A stretch of DNA of 60,677 nt, filler included, from Hausera hauseri (lineage: Eukaryota): assembly GCA_046269625.1 (NCBI GenBank). It is 13 parts of 13 records of this genome, joined end to end, with 100 filler letters (N's around TTAATTAATTAA, not from the genome) between each part and the next. Parts side by side here need not be neighbours in the genome. Positions count along the whole stretch, not along the records: positions 50,270 to 55,550 come from JBJURY010291836.1; positions 55,651 to 60,677 come from JBJURY010356932.1; 11 more parts are not named here. One strand, given 5' to 3'. The translations under genes and the position numbers were made by a program. A model generated the notes under the pieces. The model ran no database searches and was not told where the DNA came from. It worked only from the letters and a program-made list of their open reading frames with translations. This document shows, piece by piece, positions 55,506 through 60,677 of the stretch. Numbering within the stretch: the first letter of the stretch is position 1; every line of letters begins with the position of its first letter.

Positions 55506-55864
55506 GGTACTATGGCAGGTTTCTGGATCATGTATTGGAGCCAGACATTCNNNNNNNNNNNNNNNNNNNNNNNNNNNNNNNNNNNNNNNNNNNNTTAATT
55601 AATTAANNNNNNNNNNNNNNNNNNNNNNNNNNNNNNNNNNNNNNNNNNNNATATATGTACGTTTTGGAAGAAAAGATAGATAGAGGAAAAGACATGTTTA
55701 TTTTGTAAGGAAAGAGAAATGGAGAATGTATATGCCATTTCGGGGGTACAGCGTGTCACTCGGGACCCGGCCGCAACCAAAATCGTTACGAGTAGGAATT
55801 CTGTATATTCATTAGAGGTATATGTTTTAAGTATAGTGGACAAATGTGAAGTTGTAGTGCTGTC

Positions 55865-56480
55865 ATATACATCAGCGTATTTATTTTTTTGAACATTTTT
55901 ATGACACTTTCATCTCGGCTCAACAGATTTTGTTGTAAAAACGGTCGGACGTACGTTACGTCGATATTACAAAATATTTGCTGCATCGCGTGCCGACCCT
56001 TCATTCCGATGATTTCTTCAAATCTGGTAAGAACGTGGTTAATCATCGATTCCGTTACTTGATGAATCAAACTCAATTCATTCGGTTTTTTGATTTCAAT
56101 ATTAAACATTTTGACAAGGGGCTTTATAGTAATGCTCATGGACAAAATAGTAAACAACGCAATGAATATGGTGATGTCTTGTACAGCGTTTTCATTTATT
56201 TTCGTGTTAGGAGGAATTAATAACGATAAACAATATGCAATTCCGCCACGCAGACAGCCATACGATATGATAAATTATTTGTTACTCTTAATACGCCTTA
56301 CATTTAAATCCAAATAATTAATAATGAATAAAATAATGTAAAAATGAATCTACCGTAGAGGCATAATAGTAAACTCCGTAAAATAAACCCAAAATACGAC
56401 ATCCAACTGAAAATTCTTTCCGAAACAGACACCTCAATTTGGAATAAGGAAACATATTCACTTAAATTAGCCAGTATTTT
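55865..56480 (-). pseudogene. SLC9A: Fragment of an NHE (SLC9A) Na+/H+ exchanger: last TM helices and proximal tail
   Basis: LANLSE...LLLCLYGRFI...FIISYGCLRGGIAYCL...FTILSMSITIKPLVKMF...NHVLTRFEEIIG..GRH, cf. NHE YGGLRGAIAF, QGMTIRPLV, DHLLTGIEDI.G. Confidence 0.85.
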
Positions 56481-56559
56481 CGATAATCGTTTGAGTCGTT
56501 TTTCATTGTCGATCCAACAAATCCATTTTGACTTATCATTACGTTCACGTTCGATTTGA

Positions 56560-57325
56560 ACGGCCTGTGAAATTGCTACATCTACAATATTATTAGCAAT
56601 ATGAAGTAATTCGACATATTTCTCTTTCCAGTGGCAATGATGGCTGCAGTCATTAAAAGAACATTCGGTAATATCATCTAAAATACTCTGAGGGTTCTGA
56701 TAAAACCTGAGATATGAACTGTAATCGATAGGATAAAACCTGGATAATTGAGATACAGTTTAAGATCAAAACTGAAATCAATTGCGGCTAATTCAATGAG
56801 CTGATTGTGAATATTAGGAAAGCAATCACAAGGTATTGTAGAATCTTTAGTATGAAACTTCCTATTTATATCTGAATTTTTATATGCTGTCGCGAAGTAT
56901 TCGTGGAGCCTTTTCTCTATTAGAGCCATTCGAATTAGAGCTCTTAACATAGCATAATCTGTGTTTATATTATCCAGTTCCTTTATGATTGATATACAAT
57001 TATTTCCAATATTTGTACAATTTCTGTTGAATAATTTCCACGGATGACCTTTGACGTTGTTTGGAAATGAAATGAATGCACCCTTTAAATGAAAGTAAAT
57101 CACATGTTTGAGTATTGTACAAAATTTCAAAACATCGTCGAATAAATCGTCTAACGTTTCTTTAAAACATGACTTATCCAATAGATTTTTGACAGAAAGA
57201 CTTAAAACGGCAATAATGTTATTTCTGATGATTAGTAATGCTTTTTCCATTTCGCAATTGTTTATGTCTTCTGACACCATTGTTATTTCGTATTTCCAAA
57301 TAAGCAAAAATTCCAAAATGAGCAA
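56560..57325 (-). pseudogene. RUNDC3: RUNDC3 (RPIP8)-like RUN-domain coding sequence, intronless and 3'-truncated
   Basis: RNNIIAVLSLSVKNLLDKSCF.ETLDD...NNCISII....N....RALIRMALIEKRLHEY...RKF...LAAIDFSFDLK matches RUNDC3 SVKTLIDRSCFETIDD, RAWIRVALMEK, AIDFSFCLK. Confidence 0.85.
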
Positions 57326-57513
57326 AAGGATAAATAATTCAGAAAATAAGGCGATTTCTAATTATCTATTTTATTTTTTTAACTTCATAACAAAATCAAT
57401 TCATTTTTATAAACCACAATTTTTTTAAATAACGCAGTAAAAACTAACAAATTTAATACAATTTTTCTGAAACAAACGGTGAGAAAACTTAACATTTAAA
57501 GTCAGGCCATAAA

Positions 57514-58510
57514 TCATCTGTGTAAACAAAATTGATGGGATTTCAGTAATAGCAACGAATTTCTATTAATTGAATTGTATCTATCATAAGTCTTTAATTT
57601 GAAATTTCTTTTGCGTCCGGATACGTGTATAATTACTGTTCTTCTATCTGTTGTGATTTCGTAATATTTGGAAAAATTCCGAACAATTATTAATAATGGA
57701 AAACCGATGGCCAAAACGCAGGCAATTGCACAAATACTACCGATCAATTTTCTCCAAGGCGTAACTGTCAAAACATCACCATATCCCACTGTTGTCATTG
57801 TAATCAGTGCCCACCAAAACACATCTGGGATACTACGAAAATGTGACATATCTGATTCGAGTTCTGCGATTTAGACAACACTTGCAATTAGAATTACGCA
57901 TATCAACAAAAAAAACAGTAACAATCCCAACTCTTTAGTACTGGCCTGCATAGTTTTGCTAAGAATTCTCAAACTTTTCAAATGGCGCGATAATTTAAAT
58001 ATTCGGAAAATACGAACTAAACGAACTACTCGCAACCTGGTCAGTGTATCAATTTGTTGTTAATTGCCTTCGCCTGTAATGAGTAATTTAACCGTCACAT
58101 ATTATGGTAGTATCGTGAGCATATCGATTATATTTATAATGGATTTGAAAAATCGTAATTTATCTGCAGATGAAAGAGGTCGAATTATTAATTCCACTAC
58201 AAACCAGATTATACAAATTTTATAAATAACGAACAAAGGATTTGTCAACTCTGGTTTAACATCTTTTTCTATTCGGGTTATGTTTTAGTTGATTTTCGAA
58301 TTACTTTGTTTATGTATACGATACCGCCACCGACGTAATAATCATAATAACTGATAACACGGCAATTGCACTTTCATTGAGTTCATTTTCATTGCACTTT
58401 CATCTATTTTTTCCAATAGTATATCGACAGGAACATCGAGGGGTTGACGAAGTTTTCCACAACTTTGATAATAATAAAGAATTCCATCGAAACTCGATCG
58501 ATTTCTGTCA
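57514..58510 (-). pseudogene. KCNA: Shaker/Kv1 voltage-gated K+ channel, decayed and intronless
   Basis: T1 [26 protein letters not shown]4 [18 protein letters not shown]; pore SIPDVFWWALITMTTVGYGD; several stops, frameshifts and deletions. Confidence 0.92.
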
Positions 58511-58749
58511 AAGGACAAATTTGTTTTGTCCAAAACCACTATTTATCTAGCCCCTTCGCTTTTGGATTCTCTTAGGTTTTCTGTTCATTGTACGACTCAT
58601 AAATAGACTAAAGTAAGTTCCAAATGTATGGACAAAATTTGAATCACCAATATCCAAAACCAATATTAATCGTCGACCAATATATTCATTCAGAACCATC
58701 ATGACTTGCGGCAGCTGCATTGTGGTGGCGTTCGAGTCCACGGCATCAC

Positions 58750-60677
58750 ACTACCCCTCGTTACGGAAATGATACTGTATTAATGGAAAGAAAGTAGTAG
58801 AAGACAAAGTAGTGAGGTGTAGAAGAACTATTGAAAGAAGCAAATTTTTGATGTAATTGAAACAGAAACGTGGAAAGGATACGTTTTGTGAGCTATTGCA
58901 TCTTTGTATGGACAAGACGTTGAATTTTGTAAACATTCTGTTCTCTGCTGTATTTACTGAAGGTAAGCGTCTTGCTTTGTTTAATGTGCTGTTTAATTGT
59001 CTGTTGAGATGGTTGAGATGAAATTAAGTTTTGATGGGACATGTCAGCAGCTTGAGAACTGATCGGTATAGCGTTTGGTGTAATGTTTTGAGTTGATGCA
59101 GGTTTCGGAGTAGCAAGTCGTCGTGCAGGTAGAATGGGAGAAGAATTGAAAGAATAAAGAAAGTTTTGTGTGGATTCAGCTGAAAATTCCGGTGAATCAT
59201 CGACGAAGAATGCTGGTTTTACGTTATTTATGTGTCTGTTTTGCTGTTTATCGTTTTTGAGTATGGTAACTGTGTGTGAACTTAGGTTGAGGACTTTAAA
59301 TGGTCCTAAATAGTTTGGTTAAAATCCTGTAAGTGAAGGGTTTTTTATCCAAATGAATTTTGCGTTGAATAATGAATCAGGTAAGTATGTTTTGTCTCCA
59401 TGTACTATTTTGCAGAAAGAATCCTGGCTTAACTGAACGAAGTGATTTTGTGCAGACCTAATTCTTTCGTCAGTTGGTGTGTTATCCAAGTCGGTAAGCT
59501 AAAAAATTGCCAGAATTGTAGTACCAAATAGTGCTTCAGCAAGTGCACAACCGGTGATGGTAGAAGGCGTATTGCGCCATCCGAGTAAGACAAAGGAAAG
59601 ATGGTTGTCCAATTCTTATAAGATTCGGCCAGGATTTTTAACGAGATCTTGAGAGTGCGATGGAAGCGTTCCAATAAGTCGTTCGACTGGGGATGATATG
59701 GAGTTGTGTGTATATGATTTATGCCCAGTCGATTAACTAGAAATTTGAATAGGTTCGATTCGAATTGGGAATCTTGGTCAGTAATTATGTAGCGAGGTGA
59801 ACCGAACCGGCTAATCCAAATCCTTATGAAAGCGTCGGCAATGGCATCTGTATTGATGGAGCGCAAGTGGACGGCTTCAGGCCAACGAGACGAGCGGTCC
59901 ATCATTGTTAATATGAATTGGTGGCCGTTATCGGAAGGTAATGTGCCAACGATATCTATATGAACTGACCCAAAACGGGATGTACATGGGAAATGAAATA
60001 ATGATGGTTTAAGATATTATCAACTTTGAATTTTTGACAAGCTACACATTGCCTAACTTAACTCTGTACATGGCCATGTTACGTGGCGTTTGAGAAGACG
60101 GAATGTAGCCTTGGAACCTGTATGATACAAAGAATGAACATGTTGAAATACAGTTTGTTGAAGAGAAGGTGCTAAAATTGGCAAATGTTGTCCAGGTGTC
60201 GAAGTATCCATGGCTATTCCATCGATGATTTTCATTGTTTCAGAATTTCGTTGGAAGGTGAATTTTGGATTAACTGGTCTTTTGAAAATATTGGTGTGAC
60301 GCTAATTGCTCCAACTGACTGTGATAGGAAATCAGCTATTAAATTATCTGTCCCTGATATATGGCAAATTTTAAAGTTAAATGTTGAAAGATAGGATATA
60401 TGGCGTTCTTGTCGCAGTGATGGCTGTTTCATTGTCATTACGTGAACGAGAAGGTTGTGGTCAGTTTGAATGGTGAAGAAGCGAGCGATAAGCAAGTGTG
60501 AACATTGTTTTAGAGCTAAAACAATAGTCAAGAGTTTTCTATCGAATGTAGAATAGCGGCGTTCTTGTTGCTGCAGCTTGCGCGAAAAAAATTCTAACGA
60601 TTCATTTATCCCTTGGGATATTTGATGAAGAACCGCTCCTACTGCTGTAGTTGATGCATCGGTTGTTAAAATGAGTT
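58750..60677 (-). mobile_element. Gypsy RNase H-integrase region, PPT and 3' LTR start at 58750
   Basis: TDASTTAVG, RYSTFDR, TDH, MDRSSRWPEAV, YHPQSN..ERFHRTLK; PPT GAGGGGTAG then TGTGATGCCGTGGACTCG. Confidence 0.95.

Follow-up and report, generated by a model that had tools for sequence, protein, structure and literature searches.

The 60.7-kb window, the whole stretch of Hausera hauseri DNA that was analysed, consists of 13 short contigs with N linkers between them, and the locus lies on the one at positions 55651-60677 (JBJURY010356932.1). This contig holds the 3' half of a dead Gypsy element of CsRn1-like type and, after it, broken bits of four unrelated host genes, which behind the LTR tip on the minus strand come in the order Rh-type ammonium transporter, Kv1, RUNDC3 and NHE. 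All four are in the sense of the element and are interrupted by stops or frame changes, so the description of the cargo as damaged or truncated and element-oriented in the initial annotation is upheld. That annotation counted three host genes and left about 200 bp between the tip and Kv unassigned; this piece is the Rh-type fragment (RhCG match E=8e-5), the fourth gene.

The pol remains (58893..60677, minus strand) were found by profile search and comprise RNase H (Pfam RT_RNaseH, E=1e-24), integrase (rve, E=3e-11) and a C-terminal tail, with RNase H and integrase both broken and the pol stop at 58893. The DNA identity of this element, copy C, in the pol region is 83% to the sister copy B and 79% to the sister copy A. 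A polypurine tract (PPT; 58751..58759, minus strand) is seen in the sequence at the same place as in copies A, B and D and in the relatives L003, L004 and L012, and is followed by a conserved LTR tip (58700..58750, minus strand) recognised by comparison among the copies. The order RNase H, integrase, PPT, TG is the one expected for Ty3/Gypsy. The tip starts with TG at 58750 and consists of a TG...CA module of 30 nt, with inverted ends of 7 nt, and 21 more common nucleotides. Copy A agrees with it at 38 of 51 nt and copy B at 17 of the first 18, similarity further on being at background level. Copies A, B and C have the tip in common and diverge completely past it. A tip hairpin was considered as a hot spot for template switching and rejected, with none of 7 folds better than shuffles; the fold of the 30-nt module has a z of -0.5.

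Sequence and profile searches confirm that host coding fragments begin directly behind the PPT and the tip at 58750, and the identities first given to the decayed Shaker Kv, RUNDC3 and NHE fragments hold in Pfam, PDB and TIGR00840 matches. The Rh-type fragment (58562..58714, minus strand), of about 46-51 codons, overlaps the end of the tip and matches RhCG 167-212 in PDB (E=8.1e-5); its Pfam match PF00909 (E=0.002) is under the cut-off. The Shaker/Kv1 pseudogene (57514..58542, minus strand), identified with Pfam and PDB, extends from mid-T1 to its own stop and is 5'-truncated, since it starts at profile position 42 of 94. It has an internal deletion, frame changes and in-frame stops at 58104, 58062 and 57873; the second half of T1, S2-S6 and the pore are in separate pieces free of stops. 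The Pfam matches are BTB_2 (9e-7) and Ion_trans (5e-7, 1e-9 and 1e-10), the best PDB match is Shaker (1e-23), and Rfam K_chan_RES was found at 57676-57789 (E=4e-7, under the gathering score).

Next to Kv is an AT-rich stretch (57281..57513, minus strand; GC 0.23) that ends in ACA and contains a step in copy depth at 57346-57394. Weak similarity links it to AT-rich stretches in copy B (5 of 200 shuffles) and copy D (2 of 200). It is taken to be the Kv 3' UTR plus, likely, R-U5 and the 3' end of an LTR. One nucleotide past the ACA lies a candidate primer binding site (PBS), TGGTGTCAGAAG, at 57268..57279 on the minus strand, an exact 12-mer complementary to the 3' end of tRNA-Leu that overlaps the start codon (57280) of the RUN open reading frame. 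The same tRNA-Leu PBS is documented for Steamer (PMC8905726), and the tRNA-Leu match also rests on PMC7997516. The chance expectation for the exact 12-mer after ACA and one nucleotide in the 3.1-kb block is about 1e-4, and the 10-mer occurs exactly twice in the window against 0.08 expected, both times in element sense and after ACA. Among 82 loci there were three exact matches to the 12-mer, all behind the LTR, in L003, L004 and L012; these have a doubled CHCC gag motif in common, and in L012 the PBS is not preceded by ACA. L003 and L004 join the window copies in an integrase clade (98/98) of a tree built without a named CsRn1 element. The ACA is the inverse of the TGTG tip of copy C over 2 nt and no further. 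Weaker look-alikes of the PBS arise by chance, since a word with 2 mismatches after ACA, at 216 in copy D, is within a Polinton-like reading frame.

Downstream of the PBS is the N-terminal part of RUNDC3 (56577..57280, minus strand; RUN domain E=3.5e-14), with the RUN domain, the start of the coiled coil and a frame change near 56760. The named relatives among those looked up were RUNDC3A/B, the others being without a name. The spacing between the start codon and the RUN domain is natural, and one of 93 homologues (P0023) has a similar N-terminus; the 12-mer could therefore be native to the RUNDC3 mRNA. The fragment is 3'-truncated, with homology stopping near 56577 and no stop codon before the NHE-side junction near 56510. 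The NHE fragment (55789..56510, minus strand) is firm at 56274-55876 (TIGR00840, E=2.6e-15; NHE3/NHE1, E<=3e-11) and has stops at 56352 and 56277. Its probable 5' edge near 56510 is marked by a step in copy depth and by four contigs with a loose end at 56509. Judged by eye, we take 56510-56277 to resemble the preceding NHE helices; PDB, NCBIfam and Atlas searches gave no support for this extension. The distal segment (55651..55785, minus strand), a high-copy stretch with a summed depth of 520-1390, has a GC-rich start, TATA-like and AATAAA-like words and a pyrimidine tract. It is likely the gag-proximal leader, although none of 7 comparisons with other leaders was significant. A second, degenerate PPT and tip seen by eye at the distal end did not stand out in local alignments and was rejected.

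The sister copies carry other sequence in corresponding places. Copy A (27551..28341, minus strand), with the order gag-PR-RT-RH-IN, has the tip in common for 51 nt and then unrelated sequence. Copy B (41540..43271, minus strand) has the same tip followed by other DNA, in which there is a broken DXD glycosyltransferase (PF04488, E=4e-4, under the cut-off), and its AT-rich stretch resembles the LTR end of element E (0 of 200 shuffles). Searches gave no firm identity for the cargo behind the tips of A and B. Element E (17391..20900, plus strand) comprises ACA plus 3 nt, a PBS (10/12), about 2.9 kb of cargo, the leader, a ubiquitin-like domain and gag. The cargo holds a 639-aa open reading frame, to which searches gave no identity, and a KAP3 fragment (20029-20307; PF05804, E=3e-26). 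The distance from the end of the cargo to the end of the ubiquitin-like domain is 580 nt, similar to the 462 and 633 nt from the PBS to this domain in cargo-free relatives. No second PBS with up to 3 mismatches was found in this contig, where the cargo leads into the leader and the ubiquitin-like gag; a TGGCG at 20828 was rejected as the PBS because it is within the ubiquitin-like coding region. The fragments identified in B and E have the orientation of the element, as in C.

The initial annotation proposed a count of the copies of the block, and one public run, X1, which holds half of the words and may be the source sample, shows the cargo as several diverged copies in nested layers, deletion variants included. 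The summed depth in X1, which is not copy number, goes from the distal end towards the tip through 1386, 521, 188-414, 36-246 and 25-86, with 6964 at the tip and steps at 58725, at 57346-57394 and at about 56510. The number of differing contigs at the listed sites reaches 17 for the NHE part and is 1-3 for RUN and 1-4 for Kv; on the Kv side, two diverged contigs both end at 57394. No repeat of the block was found elsewhere in the 60.7-kb window.

The reported absence of introns from the cargo is real and weak as evidence, the probability of no intron in 2.6 kb being about 0.23 as calculated from a single two-intron control gene, a TopBP1-like gene in the window with about 2 introns in 3.5 kb. 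Word-index searches found no parents of the RUN and NHE pieces, and a HMMER search with RUN gave relatives of 21-50% identity, with 33-39% for the best-scoring. No cargo homologues were found among the 82 loci by tblastx. A single-protein metagenome scan gave no match, and 3 weak loci came from a scan of viral sequences.

The block probably comprises two cargo slots connected via a shared or collapsed LTR rather than one LTR of more than 3 kb, and on balance we favour a scheme in which the slots were filled by repeated jumps of reverse transcriptase (RT) onto co-packaged host mRNAs. The exact match to the tRNA-Leu primer site likely marks an LTR end, which argues for two slots; most likely the 12-mer at 57279 ends a 1.47-kb LTR holding Rh and Kv and starts a leader holding RUNDC3 and NHE. 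Slot 1 would be U3, with the tip (58750-58700), Rh, Kv and then R-U5 to 57281, and slot 2 would run from the PBS (57279) through RUNDC3 and NHE into element leader DNA toward gag. The placement of the cargo in U3 in the initial annotation is thus retained in part, Rh and Kv (about 1.2 kb) being probably inside an LTR; the single LTR of more than 3 kb fares less well, as the block is divided at 57283-57268 by an LTR-end/PBS junction typical of the lineage and the sister contig E has cargo between PBS and gag without a second PBS. Template switching by RT, also invoked there, fits multi-copy fragments fused within coding sequence behind a conserved PPT and tip. RT would quit the element RNA for host mRNAs during minus-strand synthesis and then return, and the surviving products would be those with the integrase tip and PPT still at one end and a PBS at the other. 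Because only products with both signals survive, cargo would gather right behind the tip/PPT and the PBS, with gag-pol kept. Captures may have been serial with amplification between them, NHE being the oldest and most copied, RUNDC3 added 5' and Rh-Kv last. The LTR-to-PBS join may be a real tandem in which one LTR is shared, or the 3' and 5' LTRs may have been collapsed in assembly from short reads. The available part of PMC5131818 describes the template-switch mechanism, multi-gene chimeras and re-amplification.

It is less likely that a single LTR of more than 3.1 kb makes up the whole block, with new mRNAs entering behind the tip, the distal segment as R-U5 and, at 57279, a 12-mer that is either a fossil or native RUNDC3 sequence. 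The depth in X1, stepping down from the distal end and up again at the tip, is what layered insertion behind the tip would give, and the TATA-like and AATAAA-like words are in the distal 100 nt. Depth upstream of the PBS is moreover not doubled, with 246 compared with 229 for adjacent bins and 118 compared with 88-107 for single sites, which counts against two slots because two LTRs per element would predict doubling. On the other side, chance is an unlikely source of the 12-mer with ACA, the same layout recurs in contig E with gag directly after and no second PBS, the distance from tip to PBS in relatives is 341-685 nt, and a family-wide leader would be high-copy too.

Gathering of the fragments at the DNA level, by Helitron- or Pack-TIR-like capture, nested insertions or segmental duplication with a Gypsy end adjoining for other reasons, appears improbable. 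The genome is intron-poor, so intron-free pieces are no proof of an RNA step, and the failure of the word-index and HMMER searches to find parents suits this explanation as well. The common element sense of all four fragments and of those identified in B and E speaks against it, as do the joins both at the tip and at the PBS; neither a terminal repeat nor a second element was seen inside the block. Least probable is an ordinary element whose very short LTR is the 30-nt module, beside host genes or pseudogenes broken by decay or error, a reading that was already disfavoured. Copies C and A both have the module with its inverted ends, and sequence errors or decay do occur in the window contigs, since the TopBP1-like gene has a frame change near 49700. 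Past the module, however, C and A agree at 15 of 21 nt (P ~3e-5), copy B is without the 3' half of the module, and its fold is no better than shuffles; four truncated genes within 2.9 kb also speak against this reading, as do the numerous diverged copies in X1 and its deletion variants.

Gene capture by an LTR element is of a known kind; the positions of the cargo here are unusual. LTR-mediated retrocopies (Tan et al. 2016, PMC5131818) likewise combine partial host coding pieces with LTR-element DNA in chimeras of at least two genes, as in the present multi-gene chimera, with template switching as the proposed model. In the accessible part of that paper, some of the internal ORF sequence was replaced by cargo in 15 of 15 Drosophila cases, whereas here the cargo follows the PPT tip and the PBS, beside the 3' half of pol in C, and E keeps gag behind it. 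Maize Bs1 has fragments of three unrelated genes in one LTR element (PMC13317346, PMC5131818), but as described in the available parts of those sources it is a plant element with internal cargo, while here four genes probably extend over LTR and leader and sisters have different cargo. Foreign sequence within the LTR is also known from the TRIMs Cassandra, Helenus and Ajax (PMC10886601) and from BARE-2 (PMC13317346); in the available accounts it is 5S rRNA, tRNA or DNA of another element, a proposed promoter in TRIMs, rather than varying protein-coding fragments. No tRNA or 5S match was found in the block, and pol remains are present. The CX2HX9CX3C gag motif of the CsRn1 clade (PMC2582038) is found in A, E and five relatives (L002-L005 and L012), in two copies each, the gag of copy C lying outside the window; compared with what the available part of that source gives, the motif is doubled, the PBS is tRNA-Leu instead of tRNA-Trp and gag has an N-terminal ubiquitin-like domain. 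A title and abstract-start literature search found no description of a ubiquitin-gag fusion. Tandem LTR elements with a common internal LTR (PMC11899658, in part) resemble the PPT-LTR-PBS run, but the run here may be an assembly collapse, L003 and L012 being circularly assembled. The giant elements Ogre and Burro do not have host-mRNA mosaics described in the available part of PMC6431247; Ogre LTRs are 1.9-6.5 kb there, so LTR length alone is not new. No mosaics of host mRNA in the LTRs of animal Gypsy elements turned up in this search of titles and abstract starts, which covered few subscription papers; LTR-internal cases may exist among the junctions that Tan et al. report.

More tentatively, and with some doubt, these copies may represent an animal Gypsy lineage in which the LTR is reduced to a 20-50-nt integrase tip, with reloadable mRNA slots behind the PPT and the PBS and gag-pol kept. 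In the strongest form of this proposal the RUNDC3 mRNA would itself have been tRNA-primed via the start-codon 12-mer complementary to tRNA-Leu, its 5' UTR would have become the R-U5 of the element, and the whole 5' end of the element would come from a host message. LTR elements with cargo of this kind give rise to many false gene models, and they escape LTR finders built on the expectation of an LTR common to the family. If ion-channel coding sequence can overwrite U3, the question is where the promoter lies. Cargo in the LTR would be doubled at each transposition and would persist in solo LTRs. Downstream of the PBS, cargo would be carried along without loss of gag-pol. A still-coding element of this type would then be a steady exon-shuffling machine, as opposed to one-off non-autonomous retrocopies.

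The window consists of 13 unrelated contigs of 3.9-5.9 kb each, connected through N linkers, and the host is an intron-poor animal using the standard genetic code. Copy C, a dead Gypsy element on the minus strand, and the block behind its PPT lie on the last contig (55651-60677). The RNase H and integrase, both broken, were recognised by domain matches upstream of the pol stop at 58893; the PPT (58759-58751) lies 131 nt past this stop and is directly followed by the LTR start, a TG at 58750. Fragments of four host genes, all in the sense of the element, stand behind it. The Kv, RUNDC3 and NHE fragments of the initial annotation are borne out by domain and homologue matches, and the approximately 200 bp behind the tip, formerly unassigned, proved to hold an Rh ammonium transporter piece at 58714-58562 (RhCG E=8e-5; Pfam E=0.002, under the cut-off). 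The Shaker/Kv1 copy begins in mid-T1 (about 58540), ends at its own stop (57514) and is interrupted by frame changes and further stops. RUNDC3 starts with a Met at 57280, shifts frame near 56760 and can be followed to about 56577; every one of 93 relatives aligns in the frame before the shift, and 23 of the alignments resume behind it. NHE is firm at 56274-55876, the match beginning at the first residue behind a stop. Its 5' edge is probably near 56510, where depth in the public sequencing run X1 rises and four contigs have a loose end; searches of PDB, NCBIfam and Atlas gave no support for an extension to this point. The host fragments behind the PPT are a real feature.

Three further 3' ends (A, B and D) and one 5' half (contig E) of sister elements are found in the window. 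The pol DNA of A and B is 79% and 83% identical to that of C. The tip, the conserved LTR start, agrees with C at 38/51 nt in A and 17/18 nt in B, and identity falls to background level beyond; the tip is therefore fixed and the downstream sequence variable. The tip of B is followed by a broken glycosyltransferase (Pfam match under the cut-off), while no identity was found for the DNA behind the tip of A. The more distant copy D has an AT-rich stretch without recognised cargo, with a weak likeness to 57281-57395 of copy C about 300-400 nt behind the tip (2/200 shuffles). One 12-nt word recurs in three places: 11 nt into the tip of A (28318-28329) and of C (58727-58738), and in the metagenome locus L012 (1492-1503), where the PBS (primer binding site) follows about 100 nt later.

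Other elements were also seen. A frameshifted IQSEC/BRAG-like fragment at 9380-10660 (plus strand; PF16453 E=6e-7) adjoins the remnant, bounded by inverted ends, of a Tc1/mariner-like element (10880-12378). A decayed DNA polymerase B gene, presumably Polinton-like, is present in three diverged copies (80-84%), at 4174-8793, 13113-17054 and 50270-55550 (minus strand). An inverted repeat of about 300 nt (82%), made of 75-80-nt subrepeats, is found at 34977-35859, and 36604-40716 contains the gag-protease region (CCHC type) of another, different retroelement twice in tandem (85%, 1.5 kb).

Of 421 stretches confirmed in a profile scan of metagenomes, the best 80 were taken, and 79 loci were retained from these. 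The integrase tree of 28 rows included 14 of the scanned loci, L006 and L018 being removed for stops and L012 and the remainder left out. Copies A-D, the relatives P0001-P0003 and loci L001-L005 form a clade (98/98). The gag of this lineage has two CHCC motifs, common to A, E, L002-L005 and L012, besides an N-terminal ubiquitin-like domain (Ubl). This domain, ending in RLRGG or RIRGG, lies in frame ahead of gag at 20690-20900 of the window (plus strand), 2000-2245 of L012 and 200-330 of L003; a literature search found no description of a ubiquitin-gag fusion. The CHCC motif is shared with the CsRn1 clade, which has a tRNA-Trp PBS (PMC2582038); here that site is absent and a tRNA-Leu site is found instead, and the lineage is therefore termed CsRn1-like only.

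The exact 12-mer TGGTGTCAGAAG was found in 3/82 loci (L003, L004 and L012), preceded by ACA + 1 nt in two of the three. The order in these is pol, PPT, TGTGGTG, 341-685 nt of AT-rich sequence and TGGTGTCAGAAG, toward Ubl-gag. L001, L002 and L005, which stop 90-412 nt past the integrase match, gave no match. Steamer elements have the 12-mer as their PBS for tRNA-Leu (PMC8905726), and a tRNA-Leu(CAA) probe starts with it (PMC7997516). In copy C it is exact at 57279, behind ACA + 1 nt (about 1e-4 expected in the block). Elsewhere in the window an exact 10-mer occurs only at 17391 in contig E, behind ACA + 3 nt (0.08 expected). The RUN Met at 57280 has the natural distance from the RUN domain, and a similar start is seen in 1/93 homologues; the RUNDC3 mRNA may therefore have contained the 12-mer from the outset, and the sequence may have been selected because tRNA-Leu can prime there. 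In L003 the PBS (4816-4828) also overlaps an ATG, whose frame runs on toward the Ubl-gag ORF, as the PBS at 57280 overlaps the RUN ORF start.

Sister element E (17391-20900, plus strand) has both PBS and gag on one contiguous piece, with a slot for cargo separating the two. About 2.9 kb of cargo, including a KAP3 fragment without interruption (E=3e-26), is followed by a 580 nt leader and Ubl-gag, with no second PBS at up to 3 mismatches. Behind the PBS, two overlapping ORFs of 639 aa (uninterrupted) and 132 aa (17409-19692, plus strand) matched no family in Pfam, NCBIfam or Atlas. With this layout as a model for RUNDC3-NHE, it appears somewhat probable that Rh and Kv lie in a 1.47-kb LTR ending at 57281 and RUNDC3 and NHE in the leader behind the PBS, acquired by RT template switches onto host mRNAs.

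The initial annotation had proposed one >3-kb LTR holding all cargo. Capture behind the PPT stands; the single LTR is probably wrong, given the exact PBS at 57279 and the slot of contig E. A single LTR of >3.1 kb with a fossil PBS is rather unlikely, although it matches the stepwise depth of X1 equally well, and against an LTR end at 57281 the depth shows no doubling upstream of the PBS; no loose end at 57281 was seen among 6 of 104 listed. Capture of the fragments at the DNA level seems very unlikely but keeps some weight, because the absence of introns from the block has P about 0.23 by the rate of one two-intron control gene. About two GT-AG introns interrupt this TopBP1-like gene (45737-50080, minus strand), whose reading frame changes near 49700 and which also contains a tandem repeat of 119 nt (47385-47699). 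The reading in which the LTR is only 30 nt long and flanked by host DNA is disfavoured: A and C agree at 15/21 nt past the 30-nt module, and the cargo is multi-copy.

Run X1, possibly the source sample, contains half of the sequence words of the block. Depth, summed over contigs in 30 bins and not equivalent to copy number, was 6964 at the tip, 25-86 across the 13 bins of Rh-Kv, 4-246 for RUN together with the 65 nt preceding the PBS, 188-414 for NHE, and 521 and 1386 in the most distal part; single contigs among those listed had a depth of 4-34. Among 40 of 317 difference rows listed, up to 17 contigs differ from the window at one site on the NHE side, against 1-4 at Kv sites and 1-3 at RUN sites. 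Two diverged Kv-side contigs share the end point 57394. The several diverged copies, with depth steps close to where the genes meet, are compatible with serial capture interspersed with amplification. Some variants lack 125 nt of RUN (56687-56813, depth 33.6), others 632 nt within Kv (57617-58250, depth 8), which suggests that the cargo is still being trimmed.

Foreign DNA in LTRs is described as small RNA genes (PMC10886601) and in BARE-2 (PMC13317346), and LTRs as long as 6.5 kb are on record (PMC6431247). No description of coding mosaics within animal Gypsy LTRs turned up among the titles and abstract openings listed by the literature searches. Copy C would work like LTR-mediated retroposition and maize Bs1, except that their replacement of internal ORFs by cargo is not seen in copy C.

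The RT of LTR elements can switch onto packaged mRNAs, also repeatedly, and the products get copied again; integrase requires 15-20 terminal bp (PMC5131818). The join at 57394 would mark where R begins, with the 3' UTR of Kv as the landing site of strong-stop DNA. The PPT-LTR-PBS run in copy C may be a tandem sharing one LTR, as found in plants (PMC11899658), or two LTRs collapsed, for which the circular assemblies L003 and L012 are offered as a parallel. Switches that replace U3 or lengthen the leader would spare gag-pol. Surviving products would need to keep just tip and PPT plus a PBS, which would explain the short distances at which cargo starts, up to about 50 nt from the PPT and about 25 nt from the PBS.
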